A DNA stretch of 51,984 nucleotides, from positions 1-51,984 of the forward strand of contig CAYIUL010000001.1 in assembly GCA_964366725.1 (NCBI GenBank), in the 5' to 3' direction. Numbering within the stretch: position 1 is the first letter of the stretch; every line of letters starts with the position of its first letter. This document shows, piece by piece, positions 1-35,280 of this stretch. Source of the DNA: an uncultured Candidatus Saccharibacteria bacterium. Lineage in GTDB: Bacteria > Patescibacteriota > Minisyncoccia > 2-02-FULL-40-12 > GWA2-44-9. The notes below the pieces were generated by a model. It worked only from the letters and a program-made list of their open reading frames with translations. It did no database searches and was not told the origin of the DNA. The position numbers and the translations under genes are program-made.

Positions 1-1
1 G

Positions 2-292
2 ATAAGCGATTCGAACGGCGATATTATCGCCTGGTCTTCGGCCGGCTCCCTCGGTTTCAAGGGCACCAAGAAATCCACTCCTTACGCCGCCAATCTGGTT
101 GCCAAGGATTGCGTGGAGAAGGCCAAGAAGTTCAATTTAATGAATATCAAGGTGATCGTTAAGGGTATCGGGCCGGGCAGAGAGTCGGCCATCAGAGGGC
201 TTGCCGGTTCGGGATTGAATTTAACCGGTTTACAGGATGCTACCCCCGTCGCTCACAACGGCGTCCGACGCAAAAAACCAAGACGAGTATAA
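2..292 (+). CDS. rpsK: 30S ribosomal protein S11, C-terminal part (5' end outside window)
   Basis: Frame 2 reads ...KVIVKGIGPGRESAIRGLAGSGLNLTGLQDATPVAHNGVRRKKPRRV and stops at TAA 290-292. This matches the conserved S11 C-terminus, and rpsD-rpoA-rplQ follow as in the alpha operon. Confidence 0.9.
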   Translation: MSDSNGDIIAWSSAGSLGFKGTKKSTPYAANLVAKDCVEKAKKFNLMNIKVIVKGIGPGRESAIRGLAGSGLNLTGLQDATPVAHNGVRRKKPRRV

Positions 293-298
293 ACACAT

Positions 299-937
299 AT
301 GGCAAGATATACCGGACCAAAAGAAAAGTTAGAAAGGCGCATCGGCCAAAAGCTCTACCTTAAGGGCGAGCGTTCGTATTCCCAGAAATCGGCGATGACC
401 AAGAAGCCGTATCCGCCCGGAATGCACGGCCAGAAAGGCACTCGCAAGAAGCTGTCCGAATACGGCCAACAGCTCAAGACCAAGCAGAAGGTCCGGAACA
501 CCTACCGGATGCTGGAGAAGCAGTTCAAGAAATACGTCAAAAACGCCATCCACTCCAAGAAAAACCCCTATGAATACATTATGAACCGGCTGGAGATGCG
601 TCTGGACAACGTGGTCTTCCGAATGGGCCTGGCCCAGTCCAGAGACCAGGCCAGACAGCTTGTGAACCACGGGCATATTCTGGTGAATGGCAGAAAGACC
701 GATATTCCTTCATTCGAAGTAGGCAGAGATGACGAAATCAAGATCAGGGAAGGCAGTTTGAAAAGCCCGTATTTCTCCTCATTGATGCCCCAGTGGCTCA
801 AGAAGGGCGAGGTCCCGAGTTGGATATCCTTCGATAAAGACAAGCTGGTCGCGAATATCAAAGGGACGCCGACATGGGCGGAGAGCGGAATGGATATGAC
901 GGATATTCAGACAATAATCGAGTTTTATTCACGATAA
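299..937 (+). CDS. rpsD: 30S ribosomal protein S4
   Basis: 212 aa. MARYTGPK N-terminus and S4 RNA-binding domain (RLDNVVFRMGLAQSRDQARQLVNHGHILVNG). Operon context fits. Confidence 0.95.
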   Translation: MARYTGPKEKLERRIGQKLYLKGERSYSQKSAMTKKPYPPGMHGQKGTRKKLSEYGQQLKTKQKVRNTYRMLEKQFKKYVKNAIHSKKNPYEYIMNRLEMRLDNVVFRMGLAQSRDQARQLVNHGHILVNGRKTDIPSFEVGRDDEIKIREGSLKSPYFSSLMPQWLKKGEVPSWISFDKDKLVANIKGTPTWAESGMDMTDIQTIIEFYSR

Positions 938-988
938 AAAATAATATATGTTATGCGCTGATTATTAAGGCGCATTACATAACAAAAA

Positions 989-1732
989 ATGTTACAGCTA
1001 CCGGAACAAATTAAGGTCGTATCGCGTGATGGCAACAAAGGAGTGTTTGAGATCTCTCCTCTGATGCCAGGTTATGGGGCAACTATCGCCAATCCTTTGA
1101 GGCGCGTTTTGCTGTCCTCGCTGGAAGGCGCGGCTATCACCTCGGTCAAGATAAAAGGCGTTGACCACGAATTCTCTTCAATGCCGGGAGTGCTGGAGGA
1201 CGTCATTGAGGTCATTCAGAACGTCAAAAAGATAAGATTCAAGCTTCACGGCGATGGTCCGGTCAAACTGACCGTCCAAGCCAAGGGTGAGGGGGAAGTC
1301 AAAGCCAGTGATATTAAACTCACTTCTGATGTCGAGCTGATAAACGAAGACCAGCACATCGTCACCCTTACCGACAAAAAGGCGGAGTTCAGCATGGAAC
1401 TCGACATAGAAAAAGGCGTCGGCTATGTTCCGGTTGAACAGAGGCAGAAAGAGAAGTTGGCCATCGGCGTCATTGCCGTTGATGCCATATTTTCACCGGT
1501 TAAGATAGTTAATTTTAAGGTGGAGAACACCCGTGTCGGCCAGAAGATCGACTACAACAAGATAACTTTGGAAGTTGAGACCGATGGCTCTATCCAGCCG
1601 GAAGCGGCTGTTAAGCGTGCCGCCGAAATATTGGTTGACCATTTTAAGATAGTGTCCGAAATAGCGGTTCCCGAAGACAAGCCGAAAACAAAGAAGGTTA
1701 AAGCACCCAAGGCCAAGAAGGCAGCTAAATAA
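989..1732 (+). CDS. rpoA: DNA-directed RNA polymerase subunit alpha, N-terminal domain only
   Basis: 247 aa. Alpha-NTD motifs are present (ANPLRRVLLSS, VDAIFSPV, ITLEVETDGSIQPEEA). The protein ends in a Lys-rich tail with no CTD, and rplQ starts 9 nt later. Confidence 0.9.
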   Translation: MLQLPEQIKVVSRDGNKGVFEISPLMPGYGATIANPLRRVLLSSLEGAAITSVKIKGVDHEFSSMPGVLEDVIEVIQNVKKIRFKLHGDGPVKLTVQAKGEGEVKASDIKLTSDVELINEDQHIVTLTDKKAEFSMELDIEKGVGYVPVEQRQKEKLAIGVIAVDAIFSPVKIVNFKVENTRVGQKIDYNKITLEVETDGSIQPEAAVKRAAEILVDHFKIVSEIAVPEDKPKTKKVKAPKAKKAAK

Positions 1733-1740
1733 ACAAAGTC

Positions 1741-2088
1741 ATGCGAAAGGGAAATAAAAGAAAATTCGGTAGAGAGACGGTCCAGAGAAAAGCGCTTTAC
1801 AAGTCGCTGGCCACCGCATTGGTTGAACACGGCAAAATAAAGACAACTGTCGCCAAAGCCAAGTCCCTTTCCGGCCATTTCGACAAAATGGTTACCATAG
1901 CCAAAAAGCAAACATTGGCCGCACGGAGATTGCTCCAGTCGCAGATAGGGGACAAGGCCGTCAAAAAGCTTGTAACCGAGATAGCTCCGGGCTTTGAAGG
2001 CAAGAAAGGCGGATACACAAGAATCATCCGTCTCGGCCAGAGGCAATCGGACGGCGCCGAGATGGCAATAATAGAATTAGCCAAATAA
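1741..2088 (+). CDS. rplQ: 50S ribosomal protein L17
   Basis: 115 aa. Motifs: GRETVQRKALYKSLATALVEHGKIKTT ... GGYTRIIRLG. Confidence 0.93.
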   Translation: MRKGNKRKFGRETVQRKALYKSLATALVEHGKIKTTVAKAKSLSGHFDKMVTIAKKQTLAARRLLQSQIGDKAVKKLVTEIAPGFEGKKGGYTRIIRLGQRQSDGAEMAIIELAK

Positions 2089-2089
2089 C

Positions 2090-2431
2090 ATGCAACAGGT
2101 TTCATTGGACGCGAAAAACCAGACATTAGGACGATTGGCTTCAAAAGCCGCCATTATGTTGCGCGGAAAAGACAAACCGTCATACAAGCCGGACAAGCTG
2201 GCCGATGTTCAAGTTGTAGTTAAGAATTTAGATAAAGTAAAATTCACCGGAAACAAACTTGCCGATAAGACCTATTACCATTATTCCGGATACCACAGCG
2301 GTATCAGGGCAAGGAAGTTATCCGAGCTGTGGGTCCAAAGGCCGGAATATGTTTTCCGGGAAATGGTCTACCGGATGCTTCCCAAAAATAAATCTCGTGA
2401 TAAAGTAATTAAGAATTTAAAGTTTGAATAA
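2090..2431 (+). CDS. rplM: 50S ribosomal protein L13 (short form)
   Basis: 113 aa. L13 core motifs are present (LGRLASKAAIMLRGKDKPSY, YYHYSGYHSG, RMLPKN). Both termini are shorter than the ~142-aa E. coli protein. Confidence 0.9.
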   Translation: MQQVSLDAKNQTLGRLASKAAIMLRGKDKPSYKPDKLADVQVVVKNLDKVKFTGNKLADKTYYHYSGYHSGIRARKLSELWVQRPEYVFREMVYRMLPKNKSRDKVIKNLKFE

Positions 2432-2441
2432 ATAAAGAAAG

Positions 2442-2475
2442 AACATTCCAACATTCTTGAGAATGTTGGAATGTT
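2442..2475. repeat. 34-nt palindrome (16-nt arms, 2-nt centre), copy 1 of 3, intergenic rplM-rpsI
   Basis: AACATTCCAACATTCT-TG-AGAATGTTGGAATGTT; the arms are exact reverse complements. Related copies lie at 6150-6182 and 17093-17126. Confidence 0.9.
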
Positions 2476-2482
2476 GTAAATC

Positions 2483-3037
2483 ATGGTTACCAAGAAAACC
2501 ACAACCAAAAAACCTGCTAAGAAAAAAGAGGTTAAGAAAGCCGCCCCTGTTCAGGCCGCGATAGAACTTGAAGAAACCGAAACGCCGGTAGTCGTGGAAG
2601 AGACGACAAACGGAAACGGGAAAGAAAAGTATTTCTCGGCCGTAGGCAGGAGAAAAGAATCCGTCGCCCGCGTCCGGCTTTTCACCAAAAAGTCATCCGA
2701 CACCACCGACGGCGAGAAAGCTCTCGTTCAGGTCAACGGCAAGGACTATACCCAATATTTCTCGGATGTTAACCTCCAGAATGTCGTAGAATCGCCTTTA
2801 AAGAAGCTCAAATCAATGAACCGCTTCAAGGCCACCGTGCTGGTCAAAGGCGGCGGCTCCAGAGGCCAGGCCGACGCCGTAAAGCACGGCATCGCCCGCG
2901 CGCTTGTATTGTTTGACCTTAACTTCCGCAAGAAGCTCAAGAAATCCGGCCTGCTCACCCGCGACCCGCGTGTCAAAGAACGACGCAAATACGGCCACAA
3001 GAAAGCAAGAAAATCCGGACAGTTCAGTAAACGTTAA
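2483..3037 (+). CDS. rpsI: 30S ribosomal protein S9 with Lys/Glu-rich N-terminal extension
   Basis: 184 aa. S9 core runs from YFSAVGRRKESVARVRLF to the C-terminal KKARKSGQFSKR. About 50 extra N-terminal residues. Confidence 0.92.
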   Translation: MVTKKTTTKKPAKKKEVKKAAPVQAAIELEETETPVVVEETTNGNGKEKYFSAVGRRKESVARVRLFTKKSSDTTDGEKALVQVNGKDYTQYFSDVNLQNVVESPLKKLKSMNRFKATVLVKGGGSRGQADAVKHGIARALVLFDLNFRKKLKKSGLLTRDPRVKERRKYGHKKARKSGQFSKR

Positions 3038-3046
3038 GTAAGGCAT

Positions 3047-3580
3047 ATGAAAAAAATTGCTATTATAATCCGTGGATCTGTTGGGGTGGGTAAATCTACA
3101 GCCGCTGATGGGATCCAAAAAGCTTTGGGTTCACGAGTTTCTAAAGTAACACTTGATGATGGTTGGGCGGAAGGTGAATTTCGTTATGCCGGTGACTCAA
3201 CTCGATACAGTGACTTAGTATCCGAAAGCCCAATTCTTTTAGTTGAGCTTGCATATGGCGAGCCAGCTGGTGATGTTTTTCCCGGAGCCACAAAGAATCC
3301 CGCTGAATGGGCCGATATTCTCCGTAAAGACAGGCGCGAGATTTTTCTTTTTAAGCTTTCTGCCGACTGGGAAACAACTCGAAAACATCTGGCTAGGCGT
3401 AAACAGCCAGAGTCGGACCAAAAAGCTTGGCATGCTCGATACGAAGAAGCTGATTGGAAAAGTTTACCACAAAAACTCAACCTCCAGGAAATAGAAATTG
3501 ATACTGCCATAACTCCACCAAATATGGTGATCGATATAATCCTTGCCACCCTTAACAAGGCGTCAGAAAAGGGAGCATAG
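3047..3580 (+). CDS. P-loop NTPase / kinase-like protein
   Basis: 177 aa. Walker A GSVGVGKST at residues 10-18. No other recognisable domain. Sits 9 nt after rpsI. Confidence 0.6.
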   Translation: MKKIAIIIRGSVGVGKSTAADGIQKALGSRVSKVTLDDGWAEGEFRYAGDSTRYSDLVSESPILLVELAYGEPAGDVFPGATKNPAEWADILRKDRREIFLFKLSADWETTRKHLARRKQPESDQKAWHARYEEADWKSLPQKLNLQEIEIDTAITPPNMVIDIILATLNKASEKGA

Positions 3581-3633
3581 ATGTCGGCTAGAATTTATGG
3601 GACCACTTGAGATTAGTAACGCTAATTGAAGAG

Positions 3634-3660
3634 AGAAAACCGCTTAATAGCGGTTTTCTC
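3634..3660 (+). terminator. intrinsic terminator after the P-loop gene
   Basis: AGAAAACCGC-ttaata-GCGGTTTTCT: a 10-bp stem whose 3' arm runs into a U-rich tract. Confidence 0.7.
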
Positions 3661-3726
3661 GTAGGGCATAACATTCAGGGCTTTAAGGCCGTTGATTTTT
3701 AGAAACAAAAGTGAGAATATTTAAAA

Positions 3727-4236
3727 ATGGACTGGTTAAAACAAAATTGGTACCACATAACTCAACTACTACTTCTTCTTTGGCCTCCGAAAAAAGAAAA
3801 AGGGGTGACTATCGACAAGAATAGTGACGAAGTAGATTTGGACAAGATCAAGGGTACCACCAGAATACTCTTTATAGATGACGAGAAATTTAAAGTTTCT
3901 AACATACTTGCAGAACAGTATGGTTGGGTTAGAACCAAGTGGGTAAAGGACGTTATATCTCTAGACTCTCAGGATATACAAAATGCAGATATAATTTTTA
4001 TAGATATTAATCGTGTGGGTACAAAGCTCGGCTTTTTAAATGGTTTAGGGTTGGTTGAACCACTAAAAGGTAGGTACCCCAAAAAGAAGGTCGTCGTTTA
4101 CTCAGCAAATCCCTATAGAAACATGTCTAATCCAGCAATTCAACGAGCCGATGGGAGGTTAAAAAAATATTCAACCCCCTTTGAGTTTCAAGACTTAATA
4201 GAAACATTTGCTAAAGAAATATATGGGAACAAATAA
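3727..4236 (+). CDS. stand-alone receiver (CheY-like REC) domain protein
   Basis: 169 aa. REC landmarks: acidic pair ILFIDDE, phospho-acceptor-like IIFIDIN, VVVYSA (T/S position), LKKYSTPFEF (K-P position). Short hydrophobic N-terminus and no output domain. Very AT-rich. Confidence 0.65.
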   Translation: MDWLKQNWYHITQLLLLLWPPKKEKGVTIDKNSDEVDLDKIKGTTRILFIDDEKFKVSNILAEQYGWVRTKWVKDVISLDSQDIQNADIIFIDINRVGTKLGFLNGLGLVEPLKGRYPKKKVVVYSANPYRNMSNPAIQRADGRLKKYSTPFEFQDLIETFAKEIYGNK

Positions 4237-5270
4237 TGAAATTTCACCTCGTTAATAAGCAGGGGGAAATTCTCATATCTAATTTCTCTGATAATCACTT
4301 GGAATTTGTTGGTAAGTCGGAAGTGGGGATTATAATAAAAGATGGTCAGAAATTAAGGTTTGGAAAAGCTGAAAACGAATTTGGAACCACATTTTTACTC
4401 GCCGATGAACCCGAACTGTTAAAAAGTTCTCGTTTGTTTAAGGAGAAACTCGCCCTATATGGCGAGTTTCTTGGGGAAGTTGATAAAATCAGAGAGGATA
4501 TTTTAGAAGATACCCTACACGACTTGGTCACACTACAAACAAAACAAAATTATGAACTTTTTAGCTTAATTAATGAAGAGCATTTGTTTAAAATGCATAA
4601 CTATAAAACACAAATAAAATTAATCGAAGCATTGATTAAAAGCAACTCCGAAAAAACGGCAAAATCGCTATATGAACTAATAAGGCTAAATTCGCTTAGT
4701 ACTAACCATTTAAAACAACTGGAACTAAAGCGTTCTTTGAATAAAAATTTACAAAATCTACAATTTAAACCTTGCAATATAAAAAAGGCTGTATTTAAAA
4801 ATATTTATACTTTCTTCAGCGACTTTGATAAGAAAGGGGTGGAAATAGATATTAAAGAATCAAGTAAGTTTTTAAATCTTGACTATGATACCTTCTCTTC
4901 TGCAATATTTTTCTTTATGGATAACATATCTAAATACATCCTTCCTAAGTCCACGCTTACTGTAGAATTTGAGCAACAAAAAGACGGAAAGTTTTCGCTG
5001 AGATTTAGTATGTTTAGTCTACAAATTAAGGAGCATGAGAAGGAAAAAATTTTTGAACAGGGGTATTCTGGAGAAAACGCCATCGCACTAAATAAACACG
5101 GAAAGGGGCTAGGCATGACCAGAATGAAAACTCTTCTAGCTGTAAATAATGCTGATGTAACTTTGGAGATTATTAATAATTCCGAAACTTATCATGAGGG
5201 GTTTAGCTACGAAAACAATATCTTCACTATATTATTTTATGACTCTGACTTAAGAGAAAACTCCGCCTAG
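4236..5270 (+). CDS. cytoplasmic histidine-kinase-like protein (DHp + GHKL ATPase, G1 box degenerate)
   Basis: 344 aa. H-box-like TLHDLVTLQT, N-box FFFMDNISKY, G2-like HGKGLGM. No DxGxG G1 box at the expected position (SMFSLQI). The start ATG overlaps the REC gene's stop (TAATG at 4234-4238). Confidence 0.65.
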   Translation: MKFHLVNKQGEILISNFSDNHLEFVGKSEVGIIIKDGQKLRFGKAENEFGTTFLLADEPELLKSSRLFKEKLALYGEFLGEVDKIREDILEDTLHDLVTLQTKQNYELFSLINEEHLFKMHNYKTQIKLIEALIKSNSEKTAKSLYELIRLNSLSTNHLKQLELKRSLNKNLQNLQFKPCNIKKAVFKNIYTFFSDFDKKGVEIDIKESSKFLNLDYDTFSSAIFFFMDNISKYILPKSTLTVEFEQQKDGKFSLRFSMFSLQIKEHEKEKIFEQGYSGENAIALNKHGKGLGMTRMKTLLAVNNADVTLEIINNSETYHEGFSYENNIFTILFYDSDLRENSA

Positions 5271-5446
5271 CAAGATTCAGTAAATCTCCAACAACTGAAA
5301 AGAGCTATGGTTGTCGTTGATTTTTAGCCATAAAATGCGAGAATTTGGAGGAAACGCCGAAACCGCTGAAATTCAAACACGAATTCGTGAAGGAAATTCT
5401 TGAGGGGGGGCCTGCCTGCACAGGCAGGAAGACGACTACCTGGCCC

Positions 5447-5474
5447 TTGTAAATAACCCAAAACATGGTATAAT
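5447..5474 (+). promoter_or_regulatory. sigma70-like promoter with extended -10
   Basis: TTGTAA (5447-5452), 16-nt spacer, TGgTATAAT (-10 at 5469-5474), upstream of the 5530 ORF. Confidence 0.5.
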
Positions 5475-5529
5475 TTAGAAACAGTTCTTAAACAAGGTAG
5501 CTATGCCTGAAATAGCAAGGAGACATGTG

Positions 5530-6078
5530 ATGGACAAGAAGTTGCGTATTCTGCTCGTCGTCGGGGTCTTCGTGATGGGCTTCGTGTGGGGAACCGCGTT
5601 CGAGAGACGCTACACCGTTCGACCCCTCCAGGCGAAAGTCGAGGGATACAAGTCCGAGATGGAGATCGTCAAGGCGGTGGAGCTGGCTCGCACGAACCAG
5701 CCGGGCGCCACATTCGACTACGGCGAGTACCGCGGTCTTCCCGTCCAGCTCGTCGTCGATCCTGACGGTCGCATCATCCTCCAGATCATCTACAGCGGGG
5801 GAAATCCCGACGTGGATGCCGACATTCGTGGCGACTATCTCGACTTCCTCAAGAATCAAATCGAGATGGCCGTCGCTACAGAGAAAGGGATTCGGCTCCG
5901 CAACGGGATGTTGCTGCGTATTGAGGGCTACCCGATTTGGGGGCCTCACGGAAGCTTGGGGCCACAGGGTGGCGCCAAAAGGTTGTACTTCGGCGAGAAG
6001 GCAACTTTCGACGGCCATACCATCATCGTGCACGGAGAAGCCACAAAGCCCATCGGCTACTATCCCTACGCCCTTTAG
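5530..6078 (+). CDS. hypothetical membrane-anchored protein (GC-rich)
   Basis: ORF-track frame 5503-6078. The AAGGAGA Shine-Dalgarno at 5517-5523 favours GTG 5527 or ATG 5530 as the start. N-terminal hydrophobic helix LRILLVVGVFVMGFVWG. A terminator lies directly downstream. Confidence 0.6.
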   Translation: MDKKLRILLVVGVFVMGFVWGTAFERRYTVRPLQAKVEGYKSEMEIVKAVELARTNQPGATFDYGEYRGLPVQLVVDPDGRIILQIIYSGGNPDVDADIRGDYLDFLKNQIEMAVATEKGIRLRNGMLLRIEGYPIWGPHGSLGPQGGAKRLYFGEKATFDGHTIIVHGEATKPIGYYPYAL

Positions 6079-6085
6079 CCAGTCC

Positions 6086-6146
6086 GCCGTCACACCGAAG
6101 AAGCCGCCCACATCGGGCTCGCTCCTCGGTGTGACGGCTTTTTTAT
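6086..6146 (+). terminator. intrinsic terminator
   Basis: CCGTCACACCGA ... TCGGTGTGACGG: a 12-bp stem with a large loop, followed by CTTTTTTAT. Confidence 0.7.
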
Positions 6147-6149
6147 AAG

Positions 6150-6182
6150 AATATTCCAACATTCTTGAGAATGTGAGGATGT
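6150..6182. repeat. degenerate copy of the 34-nt palindrome
   Basis: ATATTCCAACATTCTTGAGAATGTGAGGATGT. The left arm and centre are conserved; the right arm has diverged (GTGAGGAT versus GTTGGAAT). Confidence 0.7.
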
Positions 6183-6248
6183 CGCGTCGTTTGATTTTCC
6201 GGTGGAAAATGATATTTTATACGCAAGTTCGTTAAAGAAGGAGACGCT

Positions 6249-6461
6249 ATGGCAGGACCATACGATCTATCCGGCGGAGGCGGGCTGAAGGCCCTGGCTC
6301 TCTTGGAGAGAGCCCACACCAAGCGGATGTCGGCCCGGCATCTGCGGGCCACAGCCGGAATGTATAGTGACGAAGAGGACTGGGTGCGCGACGCCCGCTC
6401 CACCGCCAAGAAGCTCGAAAAAGAAGCCGAACACCTCGAACGCATGGCGAGGGAAGAATAA
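6249..6461 (+). CDS. hypothetical protein, 70 aa (GC-rich)
   Basis: AAGGAGA lies 5 nt upstream of the ATG. The protein is charged and helical-looking with no recognisable domain. Confidence 0.55.
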   Translation: MAGPYDLSGGGGLKALALLERAHTKRMSARHLRATAGMYSDEEDWVRDARSTAKKLEKEAEHLERMAREE

Positions 6462-6669
6462 CGTGTTCCCCATTTTTGCGTTCATTTCTGCATTAAGTAA
6501 TAACGCCGGTGGAGCCGCGTTTTTTATCATATTGCATTGATTCTTTCATAGTTGTTCGGAAAACTGCAGTCGCCCCCATAAATAAAGTGGGGGTTGTTTA
6601 TTGATAAATTGATTTTTGAGTATCGGAGTGGTATCATCTGCCCAAGTGTTCTTTAACGGAGTAAAGCCG

Positions 6670-6933
6670 ATGGAAGTTACGGTTACGATCGATTGGCCGA
6701 ACCACGAGCATGTGTTCCGCCAGGTTATACGGACCACCGACCACTACAACGACGTGGAGATCAATTTCTGCCCCCTGTGTGACCGGGTAGCAAGCCAGTC
6801 CGGAATACCGACAAATAGGCACTTTGAGCATCCCAAGGGGTGCAAGTGCTATTGGTGCGTTTACTGCAACTGTGACAAGCTGCGGGAACGTGAAAGGCCT
6901 GGGCCGACGACGCAAGCGAATACGGCTGGATAG
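6670..6933 (+). CDS. hypothetical Cys-rich small protein
   Basis: ATG at 6670 within ORF-track frame 6616-6933, with GGAG 9 nt upstream. Cys pattern: CPLC ... CKCYWCVYCNC. A terminator follows. Confidence 0.5.
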   Translation: MEVTVTIDWPNHEHVFRQVIRTTDHYNDVEINFCPLCDRVASQSGIPTNRHFEHPKGCKCYWCVYCNCDKLRERERPGPTTQANTAG

Positions 6934-6955
6934 GTGTCGGCGAACCTCCCGACCC

Positions 6956-6986
6956 GCTGCCTTGATCAGGCAGCTTTTATTTTTTC
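6956..6986 (+). terminator. intrinsic terminator
   Basis: GCTGCC-ttgatca-GGCAGC followed by TTTTATTTTTT. Confidence 0.75.
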
Positions 6987-7012
6987 TAAAATTTAATTAT
7001 AATCTCTCTATA

Positions 7013-7351
7013 ATGAGCAGGTATATTTTGAAATTCAGGGCAGTAAATAAGGATATTTTTCTTGACATAAAGTCCGGGAGGAAAACAGTTGAAACAAGGG
7101 CGGCATCAGAAAGATACAATGATATAAAAGCGGGGGACACGGTTGTTTTAGTTTGCGGAAAAGAGAGATTCGGGAAGAAAGTTAAAAAAGCCAGGATTTT
7201 TAAAACCATCGGAGCTTTGCTCAAAGCATATCCCCTAAAGAAAATAATGCCGGAGTTAAGCTCGGAAAAAGAGTGGCGGCAAGAATTATACAGTTATCCC
7301 GACTACAAGAATAAAATCAAGAAATACGGTATTATTGCTTTAGAGTTATGA
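7013..7351 (+). CDS. ASCH domain protein
   Basis: 112 aa starting at ATG 7013; the upstream part of ORF 6824-7351 crosses the terminator. FRAVNKDIFLDIKSGRKTVETR ... GD pattern is typical of ASCH. Confidence 0.7.
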   Translation: MSRYILKFRAVNKDIFLDIKSGRKTVETRAASERYNDIKAGDTVVLVCGKERFGKKVKKARIFKTIGALLKAYPLKKIMPELSSEKEWRQELYSYPDYKNKIKKYGIIALEL

Positions 7352-7421
7352 AGACATACACAATGAGAATCATTGAAGGAGCCCTGACTGACGAACAAAT
7401 TAATTTCTTAGATAACTAATT

Positions 7422-7967
7422 ATGGCGGTAAAAATTACATACTTTGTTCATGGAACAACTACAGATAACGAGAGGAATATATCCTCCGGATGGTCTGATG
7501 CGGGGTTATCAGAACCGGGCAGAAAACAATCTTTAGAGTTAAAAGAGCAAACCAAGAATAAGAGCTTTGACGTAGTATTCTGTTCCGACTTAAAAAGGGC
7601 GCTTGAATCCGCAAAACTGACTTGGGAGGGGATTGTGCCGATCATTACGGACCAAAGATTGCGCGAGTGTAATTACGGTAATTATAACGGTAAGCCGTCA
7701 TCGGTAGTTGAGCCGATGCAGGAGAATATGGTCTGGGATAAATTTCCCAACGGTGAAAGCTACGAAGATGTTAAAGCCCGAATCGCGGATTTCTTGGAAT
7801 TCCTTAAGCAAAATCATGATGGCAAATCGGTTGCTATCGTGGCCCACAAAGCTCCCCAGCTTGCGTTAGAAATTTTGTTAAAAGGGAAAACCTGGGAACA
7901 AGCGTTTGCCGAGGACTGGCGAAAAACCCACGCCTGGAAACCCGGCTGGGAGTATATATTAGAATAA
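7422..7967 (+). CDS. histidine phosphatase (phosphoglycerate-mutase-like) family protein
   Basis: 181 aa. YFVHGTTTDNE at the catalytic His position, SDLKRALESA, IVAHKAP. The usual Arg of the RHG motif is missing (VHG). Confidence 0.8.
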   Translation: MAVKITYFVHGTTTDNERNISSGWSDAGLSEPGRKQSLELKEQTKNKSFDVVFCSDLKRALESAKLTWEGIVPIITDQRLRECNYGNYNGKPSSVVEPMQENMVWDKFPNGESYEDVKARIADFLEFLKQNHDGKSVAIVAHKAPQLALEILLKGKTWEQAFAEDWRKTHAWKPGWEYILE

Positions 7968-8084
7968 TGTCATACTATAACCAGCTGTTTTATACATCAA
8001 GTTTATCTGAACATTTCGTGGTATGATCTTCGGATGGAAGAGTAATGCCGCATTGTTAATTTAGGGCGTGGTATAATTTTTATT

Positions 8085-8516
8085 ATGGAAAAAATACCAC
8101 CAAAAGTAGAAACACCGTCTTTTGAAAGATTGGAATTGGAACCGGAAGGGATAGGTTCTTTGGAGTTCATGGGCATGAAAGTAAGATATGTGCTTGACGA
8201 CCCCGAAGAACCCAACGGAACGGGACCTTCCAAGCCGGCCTTCTTCATGTTTACCCAAGATTACGGTTACGGAGCAACCACAGAAGATACGCTATCGGTC
8301 TGGATATGGGAAGGCGTACCCAAAAAATTCAAAGAAATACTGCTTTATCATGAACTCATGGAAGGATACTACTCACAATTAGGAGTAGAGCATCCCCGAA
8401 GCCATGAGTTGGCTAAAAAATCCCACCTGGCATACGCTAAACAATTTTTATCTGCCGAAGACCTGAACGAATTTCTGGAATGGCAATCCCAATTGCCCGA
8501 AGGGGGGACATTCTAG
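8085..8516 (+). CDS. hypothetical protein
   Basis: 143-aa ORF. TGgTATAAT ends 7 nt before the ATG. No recognisable domain. Confidence 0.6.
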   Translation: MEKIPPKVETPSFERLELEPEGIGSLEFMGMKVRYVLDDPEEPNGTGPSKPAFFMFTQDYGYGATTEDTLSVWIWEGVPKKFKEILLYHELMEGYYSQLGVEHPRSHELAKKSHLAYAKQFLSAEDLNEFLEWQSQLPEGGTF

Positions 8517-8542
8517 CGCATTTAACGTGGCTTTTTCTTTTC

Positions 8543-8567
8543 ATAATAAAACCCCGCTATGGCGGGG
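8543..8567 (-). terminator. intrinsic terminator for the minus-strand membrane protein gene
   Basis: CCCCGC-tatg-GCGGGG. On the minus strand it is followed by TTTTATTAT. Confidence 0.6.
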
Positions 8568-8571
8568 TGTG

Positions 8572-8937
8572 TTAGTCAGAATTTTTTGTTGGTGTCCGTT
8601 TTGTCTCGCTAAGCCAGAGCAGGCCCAATATCATGGAGTAAAACCACAGAAAAAAGAGCATGGTTCCGTATTCGGAGTTGATGAATTCCGGAGAATTGGG
8701 TTTGTGGTTGAGCCAACCGTTTATCGCATACACGAATCCGGGGCCGACAACCGCCAGCGAACCATTCATTTTGATAATTCTGGAAATTTTCTGTTCTGCT
8801 ATTGTCGCTTCGTTAAGAATGAACATAAGACCCATCCAAAAGAACACAAACGGGACAGACCCGAACACAACAGAGGCGACAAGAGAGCCGCAAAGGACTG
8901 CCAAAGATGACCATCTTACGATATCCAATTTCGTCAA
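8572..8937 (-). CDS. hypothetical integral membrane protein
   Basis: 121 aa with 3-4 hydrophobic helices. Preferred over the overlapping plus-strand ORFs, which have an unprotein-like composition. A terminator lies downstream. TTG start. Confidence 0.6.
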   Translation of the reverse strand: MTKLDIVRWSSLAVLCGSLVASVVFGSVPFVFFWMGLMFILNEATIAEQKISRIIKMNGSLAVVGPGFVYAINGWLNHKPNSPEFINSEYGTMLFFLWFYSMILGLLWLSETKRTPTKNSD

Positions 8938-9081
8938 AACAACTCCTTGATGGTTTAAATGAACTTTGAGAATTTAACGCCAAATCAACCCGGAGTCAAT
9001 AGCCGATTAATTTGACACTTCTGTTACATTTAGCGATATTTAGTTTTGTTCCTTTTGAGTTCTCTTTTGCGGAGGGAGGTC

Positions 9082-9210
9082 ATGACCAAGTTGTTGATGA
9101 TGTTCGGATTATTTATTTTTATTATCCTTATCCTCCTGCTGGCGGGTTTTCTGTCTTTGCATAGCGACCCGGAATCTCCCTACGACGAAAAAAATAAAGA
9201 CAAGCGATAA
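9082..9210 (+). CDS. possible small membrane protein (42 aa)
   Basis: GGAGGGAGG lies 3 nt upstream of the ATG. MTKLLMMFGLFIFIILILLLAGFLSLHS... forms a single TM helix. A CCGGC-aaaca-GCCGG-TTTTT hairpin follows. Confidence 0.4.
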   Translation: MTKLLMMFGLFIFIILILLLAGFLSLHSDPESPYDEKNKDKR

Positions 9211-9313
9211 GAGCCGGCAAACAGCCGGTTTTTAAAAACTTTTAAAGAACGGTTGTAGTTTGGGGTAATAAGGAATATATTCGAAACATATTCTTTTACA
9301 AAAGGGGTTGGCT

Positions 9314-10162
9314 ATGAAACTGCGTAAACAGACGCTTATTGCCCTGCCCCTGTTGGCCCTGCTTGGAATTGAGCCAATAGCCGCGCAAAAGGCGGGCCAG
9401 ACCTACAGCGGTCGGGCCGATGACAGTTCCGCTGTCCGCTGGGCAATACCGGAGGATTTTGACGGTTCTCTGGTGTTTTGTCGGGGATACTACCGGCAGA
9501 ATCGCACCGAAGAAGGGAGCTGGGGCTGGTTCGTTGACTACCCCGGAGCTGATTACAATCTTCTTATCCGGATAGGCGAATTGACAAAAACTCGGGTCCG
9601 GCTGAATTCCCAAGGCAAACCTATCCATGTGGTTGTGCATTTGGACAGCCCTCTTGTTTTTAAGTGCCCTATAATTTTTTTATCGGAAGTCGGGACGCTC
9701 AAATTTTCCGATAGCGAGGTCAAAAATCTCCGCAACTATTTTAAAAAGGGCGGATTTCTCTGGGCAGACGATTTTTGGGGTTCGGAGAGCTGGAATCAAT
9801 GGGAACAGCAAATCCGTCGAGTATTGCCGTCAGACACTTACCCGATGATAGACATTCCCGCAACCCACCCCATAAGGAACGAACTTTTCAGCATTAAAGA
9901 CATTCCCCAGGTGCCAAACATACTTTTCTGGTATAGACAATCCGGGCAAACTTCAGAATTTGGAAAGGATAGTCGAGAAGTCCACTTCAGGGGAATACGG
10001 GACCAGACCGGGAAGCTTATAGCCGTAATGACCCACAATACTGATATCGGAGAAACAATGGAAATGGAAGGATCTGATATAAATGGAAAGTTTTTTTATA
10101 AATTTTCCCCGGCGGGATACGGTATCGCGATAAACATTTTCTTATATGCCCTGACGCACTGA
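9314..10162 (+). CDS. secreted protein, DUF4159-like
   Basis: Signal peptide MKLRKQTLIALPLLALLG. WFVDYPGADYNLL ... KKGGFLWADDFWG resembles DUF4159 from memory; this was not verified. Confidence 0.6.
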   Translation: MKLRKQTLIALPLLALLGIEPIAAQKAGQTYSGRADDSSAVRWAIPEDFDGSLVFCRGYYRQNRTEEGSWGWFVDYPGADYNLLIRIGELTKTRVRLNSQGKPIHVVVHLDSPLVFKCPIIFLSEVGTLKFSDSEVKNLRNYFKKGGFLWADDFWGSESWNQWEQQIRRVLPSDTYPMIDIPATHPIRNELFSIKDIPQVPNILFWYRQSGQTSEFGKDSREVHFRGIRDQTGKLIAVMTHNTDIGETMEMEGSDINGKFFYKFSPAGYGIAINIFLYALTH

Positions 10163-10181
10163 AAAGTCGGGGCTTTTGATT

Positions 10182-10982
10182 TTAGAACTCCACCGTATTC
10201 ACCCCTCCGCGAGTGTCCGCTTCTATGAGTTTATAATTCCTACCGTCATCAACGACAAGCCAGTCCTCGTCTTTATACCACGTGGCTTTAACTATAGGCC
10301 TCGCTATGCGGATGATGCGTTCTTTTTCTCCCGCTTTCCTTAACGGTTGGTAGTTCGTGTCATTGAACCAGATGACCCAAAGCTCTCTTCCTGACCAGTA
10401 GGCGAGTTTATTATCGTCTTGAGAAAGCGAAAACCCTTTTACGTTTACGGCCAATTGTTCTGGTTTGTTTTCCGGGCCGTTATTTTTGTATAAAATATTA
10501 CTCTTTAAATAATACGGCTCGGGGTTCGGTGTTGCCGAAGGCGAGGGACTGGGAGTTATTTTGGGAGCCGGTTGAGGATAAAGGATCTCTTCCAACTCCG
10601 CTTCAAGCGCCTCTTTTTCCTCTCCCGCGACGGGGAACAGGATTATTTTGGAAAATTCGTTTACCAAACCTTCTTCGATAACGAACCTCTTTTCCCACGA
10701 AGAATACTGGTCGTCCCGCGCGAGACGGACGGAATATTCCCCAGGCAAAAGGCCGTTGATGGTTTTGGAGTTTCCGAGGAAAGAAGTGTTGCCCGCCAGC
10801 TTATCGTCCAAATATACTTTGGCGCCGACATTGGCTTTGACGTGAACTGAACCCGTACGGCTAAACCTCCTCTCGGAGAAGTTATATTTGTATCCCTGCG
10901 CGTAGAGAACTACGACATAGCTTACAAACAAAAAAATGGCTACCGCTGTATAGAATATCGTCCTCTTGGTGCGTTTGGTCAT
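10182..10982 (-). CDS. membrane-anchored PEGA-domain protein
   Basis: 266 aa. N-terminal TM helix and a PEGA-like beta domain (VHVKANVGAKVYLDDKLAGNT ... LPGEYSVRL). Confidence 0.7.
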   Translation of the reverse strand: MTKRTKRTIFYTAVAIFLFVSYVVVLYAQGYKYNFSERRFSRTGSVHVKANVGAKVYLDDKLAGNTSFLGNSKTINGLLPGEYSVRLARDDQYSSWEKRFVIEEGLVNEFSKIILFPVAGEEKEALEAELEEILYPQPAPKITPSPSPSATPNPEPYYLKSNILYKNNGPENKPEQLAVNVKGFSLSQDDNKLAYWSGRELWVIWFNDTNYQPLRKAGEKERIIRIARPIVKATWYKDEDWLVVDDGRNYKLIEADTRGGVNTVEF

Positions 10983-11060
10983 AAGTAGATTTACCCTGTT
11001 GATTTTAGCATAAAATAAGATTAGATTAAAGCATCATAAAGCAGGCCGGCAAGTTATAAC

Positions 11061-11110
11061 TGGCAACGAGGATGAACAAAAATTTATTTTTGATTCATCC
11101 GAGAGAACCA
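11061..11110 (+). other. conserved 50-nt hairpin motif, copy 1 (upstream of mreB)
   Basis: TGGCAACGAGGATGAACAAAAATTTATTTTTGATTCATCCGAGAGAACCA. Same length and flanks as 37223-37272, with compensatory inner-stem differences. Confidence 0.6.
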
Positions 11111-11130
11111 GTTATATGTAATCATATAAT

Positions 11131-12132
11131 ATGAAAAAGATCGGAATTGATTTAGGCACAACCAACACCGTAGTATTCCTTCCCAAGAAAGGGATTATTC
11201 TCAACGAGCCGTCTGTGGTGGCGATTTCTATTCTCGACAACAAGATACTTTCTGTCGGCAATCTGGCCAAGGAAATGATAGGCCGGACGCCCGACAGCAT
11301 TGTCGTTTCCCGCCCGATGGTGGACGGTGCGATTGCCGACTACCGCGTTACCGGAGCGATGCTTAAGTATTTCATTAAAAAGGCGGGCGGATTTTTGAGT
11401 TTCGTTAAGCCGGAGGTTTTAATATCCGTTCCAGCCGGAGTCACCTCGACAGAAAGAAGAGCCGTGATCGAGGCCGCCCTTAATGCCGGAGCCAAAGCCG
11501 TCTATTTGGTTAAAGAACCGGTTCTTGCCGCAATCGGCGCCAAGATACCCATTAACAGCCCGTCGGGAAACATGATATTGAACATCGGCGGAGGCACAAC
11601 CGAGATAGCCGTCATCTCTCTGGGGGGAATAGTGAGCTGGGAGTCGGTCCGCATCGGAGGCAACAAACTCGATCTGGCCATCGTGGAATACATCAAGAAA
11701 AAACATGGCCTGGCGATAGGTGAAAGGACAGCTGAGTTGATAAAAATATCCATCGGCACGGCCATGAAAGAGGCCAATGAAGAAAAAATAAACATCCGTG
11801 GCCGCGACCTTGCTTCTGGTTTTCCAAAAACCATCGAAGTAACCTCCAACGAAGTGACCGAGGCCATCACCGAACATTTAAGGGAGATCGTTCAGATAAT
11901 TAAGAGCGTCCTTGAAAGGACGCCGCCGGAACTCTGCTCCGATATTATGGATAAAGGAATCCACATCTCCGGCGGAGGGGCCTTGCTCAAAAATATAGAC
12001 AAGCTCATCACCAAGGTCACCGGAGTGCCGGCTCAGATAGCCGACGACCCTCTTTTCTGCGTCGCCCGCGGCACCGGCATAGTTCTTGAGAACCTCGACG
12101 TCTACAAGCGGAATGTGCTGGCCAAAAGATAG
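11131..12132 (+). CDS. mreB: rod-shape-determining actin homologue MreB
   Basis: 333 aa. Motifs: [31 protein letters not shown]. Confidence 0.95.
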   Translation: MKKIGIDLGTTNTVVFLPKKGIILNEPSVVAISILDNKILSVGNLAKEMIGRTPDSIVVSRPMVDGAIADYRVTGAMLKYFIKKAGGFLSFVKPEVLISVPAGVTSTERRAVIEAALNAGAKAVYLVKEPVLAAIGAKIPINSPSGNMILNIGGGTTEIAVISLGGIVSWESVRIGGNKLDLAIVEYIKKKHGLAIGERTAELIKISIGTAMKEANEEKINIRGRDLASGFPKTIEVTSNEVTEAITEHLREIVQIIKSVLERTPPELCSDIMDKGIHISGGGALLKNIDKLITKVTGVPAQIADDPLFCVARGTGIVLENLDVYKRNVLAKR

Positions 12133-12169
12133 TTGACACCGAATAGCAAATTGTTAACCTTAAGAAAAC

Positions 12170-12391
12170 ATGACTTTCAAACCCAAACAACTCGACCCAA
12201 AGTCGGTTAAAGTTTTCAGCGAAACCGAGGTTGGAACTTTGCTTGAAGACATTGACTCAAAGATAGACCTTATACTCGAAGGCCAAAACTTTATACAAAA
12301 TGACATCAAGACCATTAAGAACAGCCATCAGAACCTGAACAGCCGCGTAGACCGGACCGAGATCCGACTGGACGTCATCGAGGCCAAATAA
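12170..12391 (+). CDS. hypothetical coiled-coil protein
   Basis: 73-aa ORF with a terminator downstream. Confidence 0.5.
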   Translation: MTFKPKQLDPKSVKVFSETEVGTLLEDIDSKIDLILEGQNFIQNDIKTIKNSHQNLNSRVDRTEIRLDVIEAK

Positions 12392-12413
12392 ATTGCTCTG
12401 CTACTCCTCATCC

Positions 12414-12437
12414 AGCCCGAATAGGGCTTTTTGTTTT
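12414..12437 (+). terminator. intrinsic terminator
   Basis: AGCCC-gaata-GGGCT followed by TTTTGTTTT. Confidence 0.6.
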
Positions 12438-12461
12438 CTATAAAAATGCTATAAGTTCTAT

Positions 12462-13532
12462 ATGCGTATCGCACTCGTTCATGACTGGCTCAACAACCTC
12501 GGCGGGGCCGAGCGTGTGCTCATAGAACTCCATAAGACATTTCCCGACGCGCCAATATATGCCCTTTTTTACAACAAAAAATTCGTCCGCGAACATCTGC
12601 CTAACGCGAACATAATTCCCAGCGGGTTGCAAAAATTCCCGTTCATTACAAAAACATATCCCATTTTACTTCCTCTGATGCCGAGCGTCGTAGAATCATT
12701 CGACATGTCCGACTACGATGTCGTTATCTCCTCTTCGGTCATATTCTCAAAAGGACTGGTATTAAAGCCAAAAACAAAACACATCTGCTATTGCTATAGT
12801 CCGACCAGGTTCCTATGGGACAGGCACACCGAATACGAACACAGTTCATGGCCTGCAAAAATCGCCCAGCACCTCCTGCGCGTCTGGGACCGGCAGGCCT
12901 CCGACAGGGTGGACCAGTTTGTGGCCATATCGGAAAACGTGAAAGACAGGATACAAAAATACTACCGCAGGGATTCCAAAATAATCTACCCTCCGGTATC
13001 TCTAACGACACGGGGTGTCGTTAGCCCCAAAACTGTGGATAAGTCGGGATACTATTTGATAGTGAGCCGCTTATTTCCTTATAAAAATATAGACATCGCG
13101 ATAGAAGCATTCAATAAGCTTGGATACGAGCTGGTGATAGTGGGGGACGGGCCGGATATGGTTCGTTTGAAAAAGATGGCCGGAAAGAATATCAAACTTG
13201 TCGGATATAAGACCGACAAAGAGGTGGCCGAGTATTACAGGAATTGCAAAGCGTTCATAATGCCGCAGGAAGAGGACTTCGGATTGACGCCTTTGGAGGC
13301 GATGAGCTTTGGCAAGCCGGTGCTGGCCTTAAGAAAAGGCGGGGCGTTGGAAACAATAACCGAAGGCCTCCATGGGGAGTTCTTTGACGACCCGATACCG
13401 GAGGCCTTAGCCGACGGCGTCCGCCGATTGAATGAAAATTACCCCTCATACAAGCGAATGGAAATTCTCTATCAGGCCCAAAAATTCTCAAGGGACAGAT
13501 TCAAAAGAGAGATAATGGAGCTATTGGTGTAA
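12462..13532 (+). CDS. GT4-family glycosyltransferase
   Basis: 356 aa. Motifs: GGAERV, VSRLFPYKN, EEDFGLTPLEAMSFGKPV (EX7E region). Confidence 0.85.
   Translation: MRIALVHDWLNNLGGAERVLIELHKTFPDAPIYALFYNKKFVREHLPNANIIPSGLQKFPFITKTYPILLPLMPSVVESFDMSDYDVVISSSVIFSKGLVLKPKTKHICYCYSPTRFLWDRHTEYEHSSWPAKIAQHLLRVWDRQASDRVDQFVAISENVKDRIQKYYRRDSKIIYPPVSLTTRGVVSPKTVDKSGYYLIVSRLFPYKNIDIAIEAFNKLGYELVIVGDGPDMVRLKKMAGKNIKLVGYKTDKEVAEYYRNCKAFIMPQEEDFGLTPLEAMSFGKPVLALRKGGALETITEGLHGEFFDDPIPEALADGVRRLNENYPSYKRMEILYQAQKFSRDRFKREIMELLV
13002..13024. repeat. in-CDS palindrome, TAACGAC family, copy A
   Basis: CTAACGACAC-ggg-GTGTCGTTAG with 10-bp arms, translated LTTRGVVS inside the GT4 gene. Confidence 0.85.
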
Positions 13533-13560
13533 ATAAAAAGAGAGCTGGTCAGGCTCTCTT
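13533..13560. terminator. bidirectional hairpin between convergent genes
   Basis: AAGAGAGC-tggtcag-GCTCTCTT. An A-run lies on the plus side, which reads as a T-run for the minus-strand ABC gene. Confidence 0.6.
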
Positions 13561-13603
13561 GTCCGCCGGCTGGCGGATATTTAAACTTACGACCGATTTG
13601 AGT

Positions 13604-15436: not shown

Positions 15437-15575
15437 TGCTGCCTCCTCCTTAGCACCCCGCGGGGTGCGATGATATTTAATAGTAAAAGAACCGTTTCAC
15501 TATTATACCATAAAGTTAAATTTATTCAAGACATTCAAAATTGCGTAAAATAGCCATTTTTAGTAAAATAAACCG

Positions 15576-16442
15576 GTGAATATCAGTGTTGTTACCATCA
15601 ACTACAACAGTTCGGAGAACACGATAAAACTTTTGGAGTCCCTCAAAAACCAGACCGACAAAAATTTTAATGTTTTGGTCATTGATAATAACTCCGGTCC
15701 GGACCAGAAAGCAATATTAAAGAACTACCGGACAGAAGAAACTAATATCGTATTTATCGAAAACGAACATAACCTGGGTTTTTCCGGAGGCAACAATGTC
15801 GGGATCAAGAAAGCCCTTGCAGATGGCGCTGACTGGATTCTCCTGCTCAATAACGATACTTGGGTAGAAAGTGACTTTATCCATCGTCTAAAGACAAATT
15901 TAGAAGGCAAGGAGGGGATAATGGGGTTGGCCATAGACGAAGGGGGCAGAACCGTTTACGCCGGTAAAATTGAATGGCTAAAACCCACACTTATCCACAT
16001 AACGACACGGGGTGTCGTTAGTCCACAGGCATATGCTATCGGGGGGGCGATGGCGGTGCATAAGAACGTATTTGAAAAAATAGGGTTCTTGGACGAGAGA
16101 TATTTTCTTTATTTTGAGGATGCCGATTACAGCATAAGGGCCCAAAAGGCGAGCATTCCCGTGGAGTTTTTGCCTGAAGTTCAGGTCCGCCATTCTGTCT
16201 CGGCGTCAACCAAAAAACTCGGCTCGCCTCTCATTCTGCGCTACCACTACCGCAATGCTTTGTATTTCAATTTGAAACACGGGCCATGGTATATCAAACT
16301 GCTTGTCTTGCCCTGGAGCTGGTTTGTGGCTGTAAAACAGATACTTAAGCTGACAGCGGGAAGAAACGCCAAAGAGTCAGAAGCAATATTGGCCGGGGTC
16401 GTAGATTTTTATAAAAACAATTACGGAAAACTTCATGTATAA
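15576..16442 (+). CDS. GT2-family glycosyltransferase
   Basis: 288 aa, GTG start. Motifs: VVTINYNS, VIDNNS, LLNNDT, YFEDADYS. Confidence 0.85.
   Translation: MNISVVTINYNSSENTIKLLESLKNQTDKNFNVLVIDNNSGPDQKAILKNYRTEETNIVFIENEHNLGFSGGNNVGIKKALADGADWILLLNNDTWVESDFIHRLKTNLEGKEGIMGLAIDEGGRTVYAGKIEWLKPTLIHITTRGVVSPQAYAIGGAMAVHKNVFEKIGFLDERYFLYFEDADYSIRAQKASIPVEFLPEVQVRHSVSASTKKLGSPLILRYHYRNALYFNLKHGPWYIKLLVLPWSWFVAVKQILKLTAGRNAKESEAILAGVVDFYKNNYGKLHV
16000..16020. repeat. in-CDS palindrome, TAACGAC family, copy B
   Basis: TAACGACAC-ggg-GTGTCGTTA, translated ITTRGVVS inside the GT2 gene. Confidence 0.85.
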
Positions 16443-34641: not shown

Positions 34642-35280
34642 TCAAAAGTCACCCTTATCTAGTAATAAATCCTCCATATCTTTTTTTGATTTTATAATTT
34701 CGTAAGACGATTCGGTGAATTCTTTAAAATCTTGAATATTCTTAAATTGATTGCCAATCAAAGCTGTGTCGCAAAGATCACTTTGACTGTTTAGGTAGGC
34801 AGGATAGCTGCTCCAGATATATTCGGCCGAATTTTTTATAAGACCTGCTACTTTAGGGTTTAAATGTATATAAGCTGCAAGCCAAGTTAGATAATCATTA
34901 TCATCCACTATTATTTGCCTGAACCGATCTTGAAAAACATGGCCCACATGCTTATATTTTTTATTGGAATATTTAGAGTAGCTTGTGCAGAGTTTTAGAA
35001 TTAATTTGCTCGGCGGTATTTCATTGTTTTGTTTTATAAGCAAATGAAAATGATTCGGCATCAAACAATATGCCAAAAGAGTAAATGAGCCCGACGGAAG
35101 AGGTTGGATTCTATAATATCTGTTTTTCTCATATGTTTCGGGAAATAAATTTTGCCTTAATCGCAATAGGAAAAATTGATAGTCCTCTCTATTGATAAAG
35201 ATGTTGTTTTTGAAATTGCCCCTATTATAAATATGGTAAATCTCGCCAACTCCTGTTTGTTTATAATCTCGCGTATTCAT
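34642..35280 (-). CDS. IS200-like / REP-associated tyrosine (Y1, HUH) transposase
   Basis: 212 aa. YHIYNRGN, LAYCLMPNHFHLLIKQ (HUH), GHVFQDRF, YIHLNPKVAGL (catalytic Tyr region). Confidence 0.8.
   Translation of the reverse strand: MNTRDYKQTGVGEIYHIYNRGNFKNNIFINREDYQFFLLRLRQNLFPETYEKNRYYRIQPLPSGSFTLLAYCLMPNHFHLLIKQNNEIPPSKLILKLCTSYSKYSNKKYKHVGHVFQDRFRQIIVDDNDYLTWLAAYIHLNPKVAGLIKNSAEYIWSSYPAYLNSQSDLCDTALIGNQFKNIQDFKEFTESSYEIIKSKKDMEDLLLDKGDF

Follow-up and report, generated by a model that had tools for sequence, protein, structure and literature searches.

A 34-nt palindrome between rplM and rpsI of a Candidatus Saccharibacteria genome and its likely membership in a box family associated with a mini-ArsR gene

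Three copies of a palindrome in the window

The stretch of DNA analysed here (51,984 nt, referred to below as the window) carries a perfect palindrome in the short spacer between two ribosomal protein genes, which raises the question of what this sequence is and what it may do there. The original prediction offered a DNA cruciform, a protein-dimer site or a small mobile palindrome as readings. Copy 1 (AACATTCCAACATTCT-TG-AGAATGTTGGAATGTT; 2442–2475, no strand) is a 16-2-16 palindrome with exact 16-nt arms, each built of two tandem octamers, AACATTCC and AACATTCT. It lies in a 51-nt spacer, with the stop codon of rplM (ribosomal protein L13; 2090–2431, plus strand; Pfam PF00572, E = 2.9e-33) 10 nt upstream and the ATG of rpsI (ribosomal protein S9; 2483–3037, plus strand; Pfam PF00380, E = 4.5e-37) 7 nt downstream. 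No Shine-Dalgarno sequence is visible for rpsI, and since the rpsI start abuts the rplM stop in relatives, translational coupling of the two genes is suggested. As a separate observation, the S9 protein begins with a Lys-rich extension of ~50 residues ahead of its conserved domain (2483–2640).

Copy 2 (AATATTCCAACATTCT-TG-AGAATGTGAGGATGTC; 6150–6183, no strand) matches copy 1 at 29 of 34 positions, its left arm at 15 of 16, and is situated in a stretch of 55–60% GC immediately downstream of a terminator-like GC hairpin with a T-run (6109–6133, plus strand). Copy 3 (17093–17126, no strand) matches at 33 of 34 positions and is in frame within a GT4 glycosyltransferase gene (16435–17574, plus strand; Pfam Glycos_transf_1 and Glyco_transf_4), where it encodes EHSNILENVGMS in an inter-domain loop, the loop peptide being read as (E)HSNILENVGMS. 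The ORF directly 3' of this gene (17558–19078, plus strand) encodes a Wzy_C/O-antigen-ligase-like membrane protein whose ortholog is annotated as Wzy_C at two other loci (L182, L183). The exact arms, TG centre and location of copy 1, the 33/34 recurrence and the decayed copy 2 in a GC-rich region all agree with the original prediction, which had left the in-frame position of copy 3 unstated. A count across the genome, also proposed there, returned only these three copies in the whole assembly (G000; 522 kb, 55 contigs, 86% complete). Dinucleotide shuffles rule out a chance origin: the full 34-mer had 0 matches in them, and a single arm has 5 matches in the window against 0.77 in shuffles.

The surroundings of copy 2 belong to a sharp step in composition at 3600–6600, where GC moves from 29–38% (3600–5300) to 55–60% (5400–6400), the genome mean being 46.6%. 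Of the two ORFs in the low-GC part, one matches HATPase_c weakly, and the GC-rich ORFs of 5400–6400 gave no Pfam match.

A conserved box and its putative mini-ArsR partner

Beyond this genome, a scan of one genome per species found a box of the consensus AACATTCY-AACATTCT-NN-AGAATGTT-RGAATGTT, each arm again two tandem octamers, on at least 109 contigs from other uncultured bacteria, the majority of them Patescibacteria. Among the matches listed, the Patescibacteria carriers comprise Paceibacteria, Saccharibacteria, Doudnabacteria and others, and a few carriers are MAGs labelled Kiritimatiellia, Phycisphaerae, Verrucomicrobia, Omnitrophota and other phyla. Of 61 relatives, 5 genomes have the box, in three genera of two families and at differing, non-orthologous sites. 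The original prediction had allowed for chance or local duplication should relatives lack the palindrome; its presence in both relatives and distant lineages runs against that outcome. The conserved 16-2-16 box has the skeleton ATTC-N4-ATTC-N4-GAAT-N4-GAAT, and its centre is GC, TG/CA, TA or AT in 119 of 121 copies. Changes in the arms are concerted (TTCC/GGAA vs TTCT/AGAA; CAACATT vs CAATATT; ATACC/GGTAT), and identical 34-mers, including one asymmetric variant, are shared by distant lineages. The 34-mer of the window is identical or nearly identical to boxes flanking a regulator gene at three loci (L116, L044, L059), and the right arm of copy 2 resembles the GTGAGAAT variant found beside regulator genes elsewhere, its mixed arms recurring in boxes that adjoin the same type of gene in two genomes (G293, G188). 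We consider it highly probable that the window palindromes are members of this Patescibacteria box family. A literature search found no paper with the box sequence, nor one that brings together ArsR and an inverted repeat in the candidate phyla radiation.

The home position of the box in Patescibacteria would be on both sides of a small regulator gene. Box pairs ~315 nt apart enclose an ORF of ~88 aa (consensus MKTPKQLERHFKGAANHRRIAIL...FKTISQHTR.LV.AGLLNK...LSPYGK.F), hereafter mini-ArsR, whose product matches Pfam HTH_5 (ArsR/HlyU-like winged helix). Of the 109 contigs listed, 22 have this gene beside a box or between boxes, and no other protein family recurs next to boxes. The upstream box lies ~55 nt 5' of the mini-ArsR ATG, just ahead of a TATAAT-like element that follows the upstream boxes of the regulator genes at 12–25 nt; the downstream box overlaps the stop codon and itself encodes the final residues and the stop. 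Four regulator subfamilies correspond to four box types, the bracket layout being common to all: subfamily 1 to AACATTCY..., subfamily 1b to ACATCCTTACAAACT..., subfamily 2 to TCATTCC... or ATTCTCAAATTCT..., and subfamily 3 to CTTCTCTAATTCGCGCGAATTAGAGAAG.

The association holds well beyond the bracketed loci. Across 401 genomes of the class, with mini-ArsR called at E <= 1e-18 (99 genomes) and boxes present in 107, both occur together in 74, the regulator alone in 25, the box alone in 33 and neither in 269 (odds ratio ~24; Fisher 5e-33, with no correction for phylogeny). The median number of boxes is 3 where the regulator is present and 1 where it is lacking, and boxes remote from the regulator share the rare variant and the centre of the regulator-adjacent boxes of the same genome (for example G047, G061, G161). 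Given this co-occurrence, the palindrome is most likely the symmetric binding site of the mini-ArsR family, a reading for which the support by association is good. The covariation of gene and adjacent box could, however, stem from co-inheritance instead of binding. The protein-dimer site of the original prediction thus becomes its best-supported reading, in that an identical box brackets an ArsR-family gene in many genomes and co-occurs with it.

Known members of the ArsR/SmtB family provide a frame for this reading. Their operators are 12-2-12 inverted repeats (SmtB, CzrA, CadC), and SmtB-type repressors bind as two dimers. The present pair is alike in its small winged-helix HTH_5 partner, in an inverted repeat with a 2-nt centre and, in other genomes, in a site at the regulator's own promoter. 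It differs in that the box is a 16-2-16 arrangement of tandem octamers and that a second box, over the stop codon, brackets the gene. By analogy with SmtB-type proteins on 12-2-12 sites, the two octamers of each arm would let one box hold two dimers. The position of the upstream box just before the −10 element implies autorepression, and that of the downstream box over the stop codon suggests a roadblock or insulator. A profile of the mini-ArsR family recovers HlyU first (7e-14), followed by CadC, CzrA, NolR, PagR and SmtB. HlyU, NolR and PagR are sensor-less members of the ArsR family; the mini-ArsR alignment likewise contains no conserved Cys or His/Asp metal site and no evident sensor site, which sets it apart from the metal-sensing type. 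The profile also reaches AspA, the ArsR-like centromere binder of Sulfolobus pNOB8. Systems of this kind and parS/ParB resemble the present one in having few conserved palindromes per genome, sometimes within genes, and a small dedicated binder (here predicted), but the profile link to AspA (4e-5) is much weaker than that to HlyU.

Within the present genome, a six-frame HMM search found one member of the family only, a subfamily-3 gene on a 2.5-kb contig (C55, L137; 1002–1262, minus strand). It is bracketed by CTATTCGCTTATTCGCGCGAATAAGCGAATAG (boxes with a ATTCGCGCGAAT core), and a third box of this type lies at C55:2023. Toxin-antitoxin pairs of the HicA/HicB-like and Doc/AbrB-like kinds are encoded on the contig as well, along with a metK fragment. 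The third box was checked against the site occupied in metK of a congener (G002) and has a different location. The cognate regulator, of subfamily 1, was not found in this six-frame search, and since the assembly is 86% complete its absence is unproven; it was likewise not found in the congeners G001–G003, nor in G017, nor in G044, which is 100% complete. Boxes without a subfamily-1 gene occur in G002, G003, G017 and G044, and G001 is without a box. Because the C55 box shares the ATTC/GAAT skeleton with the window box, cross-recognition by the subfamily-3 protein is conceivable. A comparable case is G167, which has a subfamily-3 gene and an unrelated in-gene box.

Missing cognates could also mean that the genus has lost the regulator system and that the window copies are its decaying relics, with no present function. 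In favour of this stand the four congeneric assemblies without a cognate regulator and the decay of copy 2 to 29/34; copies 1 and 3, however, remain at 34/34 and 33/34, and two ortholog comparisons described below, one in the rplM–rpsI spacer and one in the GT4 gene, show copies preserved between diverged sequences, so that we regard relics as very unlikely. Class-wide, in the 33 genomes with boxes but no strong mini-ArsR match, decay of the box might have been expected. It is not borne out by the share of perfect palindromes, 16 of 36 (44%) without mini-ArsR versus 33 of 62 (53%) with it, a difference that is not significant.

Gain, loss and placement of the copies

In most relatives the rplM–rpsI spacer measures 0–10 nt, and it is expanded in this genus. 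One congener (G002) has a box variant, AACATACCAACATACTTGAGAATGTTGGTATGTT, at the position orthologous to copy 1; three concerted changes separate the two copies and leave 15 of 16 pairs intact, in a setting where the flanking genes are only 76% identical. Another (G001; L141, G001:C3) has in its spacer an unrelated imperfect palindrome of ~80 nt, composed of ATCAGTTATC and CCATTTTCCA repeats. In a third (G003), contigs C12 and C29 (L019/L020) end on either side of the spacer, where a repeat, be it the box or a different one, probably broke the assembly. Palindromic inserts appear to have a hotspot in this spacer, and the comparison indicates that copy 1 is a derived, secondary insertion.

The GT4 gene tells a similar story at the codon level. 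Its ortholog in G003 is without 27 nt at the site of copy 3 (TEFPDLRF vs TEHSNILENVGMSELKL), and among 120 homologs the loop is short in 71 and carries an insert in 49, most inserts translating as box variants (HSNILENVGMS, EHPYKLENVGMS or YSQILENLRM). Insert-bearing sequences are scattered over the tree, where 80 taxa require at least 17 changes, and an AU test rejects a single clade of carriers (delta lnL 830, p = 2e-6). These patterns indicate that the GT4 box is an in-frame loop insert that has been repeatedly gained or lost. Boxes in GT4 orthologs are perfect palindromes of differing variants, changed together in both arms, and the 34-mer of the present genome is identical in an ortholog with 63% protein identity. 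Identity and perfection of this kind, despite divergence of the protein, point to the DNA or its structure, and not the peptide, as the target of constraint or conversion. The same loop hosts other inserts as well: two direct copies of TGTGAAACCGTTGCAAGGC in G050 (L171, G050:C12), further unrelated inserts in homologs P0047, P0059 and P0070, and, in P0084, a box-derived peptide interrupted in the middle by 12 additional residues.

Further in-frame hosts are metK of G002 (L179, G002:C15:10837–10870), where the variant GACATACCAACATACTTGAGAATGTTGGTATGTC reads IPTYLRMLVC in a frame that differs from that of the GT4 copy, TspO of G044, and the G003 ortholog of the Wzy-like gene, whose own in-frame box encodes SFQYSQEYWNI; reading frames thus differ among the GT4, metK, TspO and Wzy-like hosts. 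Overall, ~12–18% of copies are in frame within ORFs, mostly in the frame reading HSNILxNVGM. In practical terms, boxes add 9–12 residues to annotated proteins and probably break assemblies. Rickettsia palindromic elements (RPEs), which measure roughly 100–150 nt and occur in frame in protein genes of one genus, are a parallel to such in-frame copies, being palindromic inserts likewise tolerated in surface loops of housekeeping proteins, as here in GT4, metK, TspO and the Wzy-like protein. The box, in contrast, has 34 nt, is tied to the gene of a DNA-binding protein and occurs in many phylum-level lineages.

These patterns could alternatively reflect a hairpin element that spreads by itself or by recombination (mobilised in trans, by template switching or by gene conversion), in which case the mini-ArsR link would be secondary and the copies here plain insertions without a role in regulation. 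The derived state of copy 1, with the short spacer of most relatives and the unrelated palindrome of G001, the scattered GT4 inserts, the in-frame copies in four gene families in differing frames and the identical 34-mers of distant lineages all speak for such an element, as do the equally perfect boxes of regulator-less genomes and the convergent-gene enrichment and flank complementarity described below. Against it stand the strong co-occurrence with mini-ArsR and a copy number that is low, typically 1–10 boxes per genome. Nor did we find a consistent direct repeat at the three window copies or the filled GT4 sites that could represent a target-site duplication; a CAGAA at the GT4 copies of the present genome and L183 was rejected as one, since the palindrome ends share it as codon context and copies 1 and 2 lack it. 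A transposase adjoining the boxes was not found. On balance we find an independently spreading element rather doubtful as the explanation of the window copies.

Candidate carriers and known element classes were considered in turn. The window itself contains a RAYT-like gene of the Y1_Tnp (HUH) family (34642–35280, minus strand; 212 aa) with its own palindrome, GTACAAAGGGCGCCTTTGYAC, on both sides. Four RAYT-like genes are present in this 0.5-Mb genome, with paralogs on C5, C6 and C32; those on C6 and C32 have their own distinct flanking palindromes, and none was found beside the C5 gene. REP/BIME-RAYT systems are similar to the box family in their short dispersed palindromes, mostly extragenic near 3' ends and bracketing the gene of the associated protein, but the bracketed gene here is of ArsR type and not a Y1 transposase, and the copy number of the box is far lower. 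The Y1 family occurs in 243 of the 401 genomes, its co-occurrence with the box is weak (odds ratio 1.8), and it is absent from the box-richest genomes, those with 17–21 boxes. We therefore reject a RAYT-driven REP, as the flanking palindromes of the RAYT-like genes are unrelated in sequence to the box and the co-occurrence is weak. The lack of a target-site duplication and of an internal segment, the element being the palindrome alone, speaks against a MITE or insertion element, and phage carriage was rejected on 0 matches among IMG/VR viral contigs. A serine-recombinase crossover site, which the 2-bp centre might recall, was discarded because no serine recombinase (PF00239) or resolvase was found in the present, incomplete assembly. 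Integron attC was set aside as well, the box being too short and, by inspection, without the R''/R' core pattern, with no integrase seen. For the small mobile palindrome of the original prediction, the behaviour is borne out (derived insertions, in-frame copies, repeated gain or loss), whereas a target-site duplication, a transposase link and phage carriage were not found.

Intergenic copies are enriched between convergent genes. For those copies with both neighbours called, 25 of 86 lie between convergent genes (29% vs a 14% baseline, p = 5e-4) and 7 of 86 between divergent genes; of the neighbouring gene ends that face a box, 107 are 3' ends and 76 are 5' ends. Complementarity continues into the non-conserved flanks by at least 3 bases for 23 of 75 copies, where 5.2 would be expected, and this counts against the binding-site reading because a protein site does not predict it. 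No conserved regulon was seen among the genes adjoining boxes. Together with the missing cognate in the genus and the convergent-gene enrichment, this counts against a simple operator. The in-frame copies, and boxes that are about as often perfect without mini-ArsR as with it, likewise weigh against the binding-site reading.

The same placement invites a reading at the RNA level, in which the box would form a hairpin that acts as an intrinsic, often bidirectional, terminator or as a site of 3'-end stabilisation or processing, the spacer copy folding away while translational coupling survives. The hairpin of copy 1 is stable (RNA −21.2 kcal/mol, z −4.4; DNA −14.5 kcal/mol), 60 of 121 copies have a T-run (4 or more in 6 bases) on one or both sides versus ~18% expected, and copies between convergent genes, close to stop codons and with stems lengthened by non-conserved flanks, would suit such a role. 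Yet copy 1 stands within an operon with no sense-strand T-run, copy 3 and many others lie inside ORFs, the upstream boxes of the regulator genes precede the −10 element, and a terminator need not hold the same sequence across phyla. Rfam covariance models gave no match up to E = 1 over window positions 1–20000, and no known RNA family was thus identified. We hold an RNA hairpin to be an improbable explanation. For copy 1 the sense strand continues with GTAAATCATG and the opposite strand with CTTTCTTTAT, and G-C pairs make up 5 of the 15 in its predicted stem; an intrinsic terminator is not supported given this lack of a sense-strand T-run, the few G-C pairs, the intragenic position of copy 3 and T-runs beside only about one-third of copy sides family-wide, in keeping with the statement of the original prediction that copy 1 is not a classical terminator. 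Promoter-like hexamers near the window boxes are weak, with copy 3 lying within an ORF.

Putative satellites of a site-plus-binder pair

Taken together, we favour, at a probability of roughly one in two, the reading that the conserved box is the mini-ArsR binding site and that the window copies are secondary satellites, possibly still bound and acting on transcription. The comparisons above show that the box is identical with regulator-bracketing boxes, that box and regulator co-occur, that box types are specific to subfamilies and that paired changes maintain palindromy within a coding region; from them we infer binding, the number of dimers involved and whatever regulation might follow here. 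The satellites would have arrived secondarily, one each in the rplM–rpsI spacer, the tolerant GT4 loop and the stretch following a terminator. Should binding persist, the binder would be an unassembled subfamily-1 regulator or the C55 subfamily-3 protein, and the bound protein might block or modulate transcription through the site. In this genome the copies might serve as a roadblock or operator under a bound protein, be insertions that the host tolerates, or act as a hairpin, the missing cognate in the genus being the chief caveat. Unlike the operators of known ArsR/SmtB members, such satellites are found by the 3' ends of genes or in frame within them, with no conserved regulon and, in this genome, with the cognate missing.

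The most unusual part of the family is its dispersal behaviour, with repeated gain or loss at one codon, in-frame copies and regulator-less genomes. More tentatively, the palindrome and its partner may represent a new genome-wide site-plus-binder system of Patescibacteria, in which the palindrome would spread by a hairpin or recombination route to intergenic 3' ends and in-frame loops of housekeeping proteins and be kept palindromic through paired changes, serving as roadblock or insulator or forming a selfish pair with its binder. Copies could then persist, or keep arriving, in binder-less genomes.

The genomes of Patescibacteria are tiny and encode few regulators, and to our knowledge there is almost no experimental knowledge of gene control in this group. 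A palindrome-plus-binder pair that is conserved across the radiation, and is also present in MAGs labelled as other phyla, would offer an entry point for experiments. It also raises the mechanistic question of how short binding-site palindromes spread and persist, as seen in their recurrent gain and loss at a single codon of a conserved glycosyltransferase, in the paired substitutions that keep them perfect within coding sequence and in their presence in binder-less genomes.
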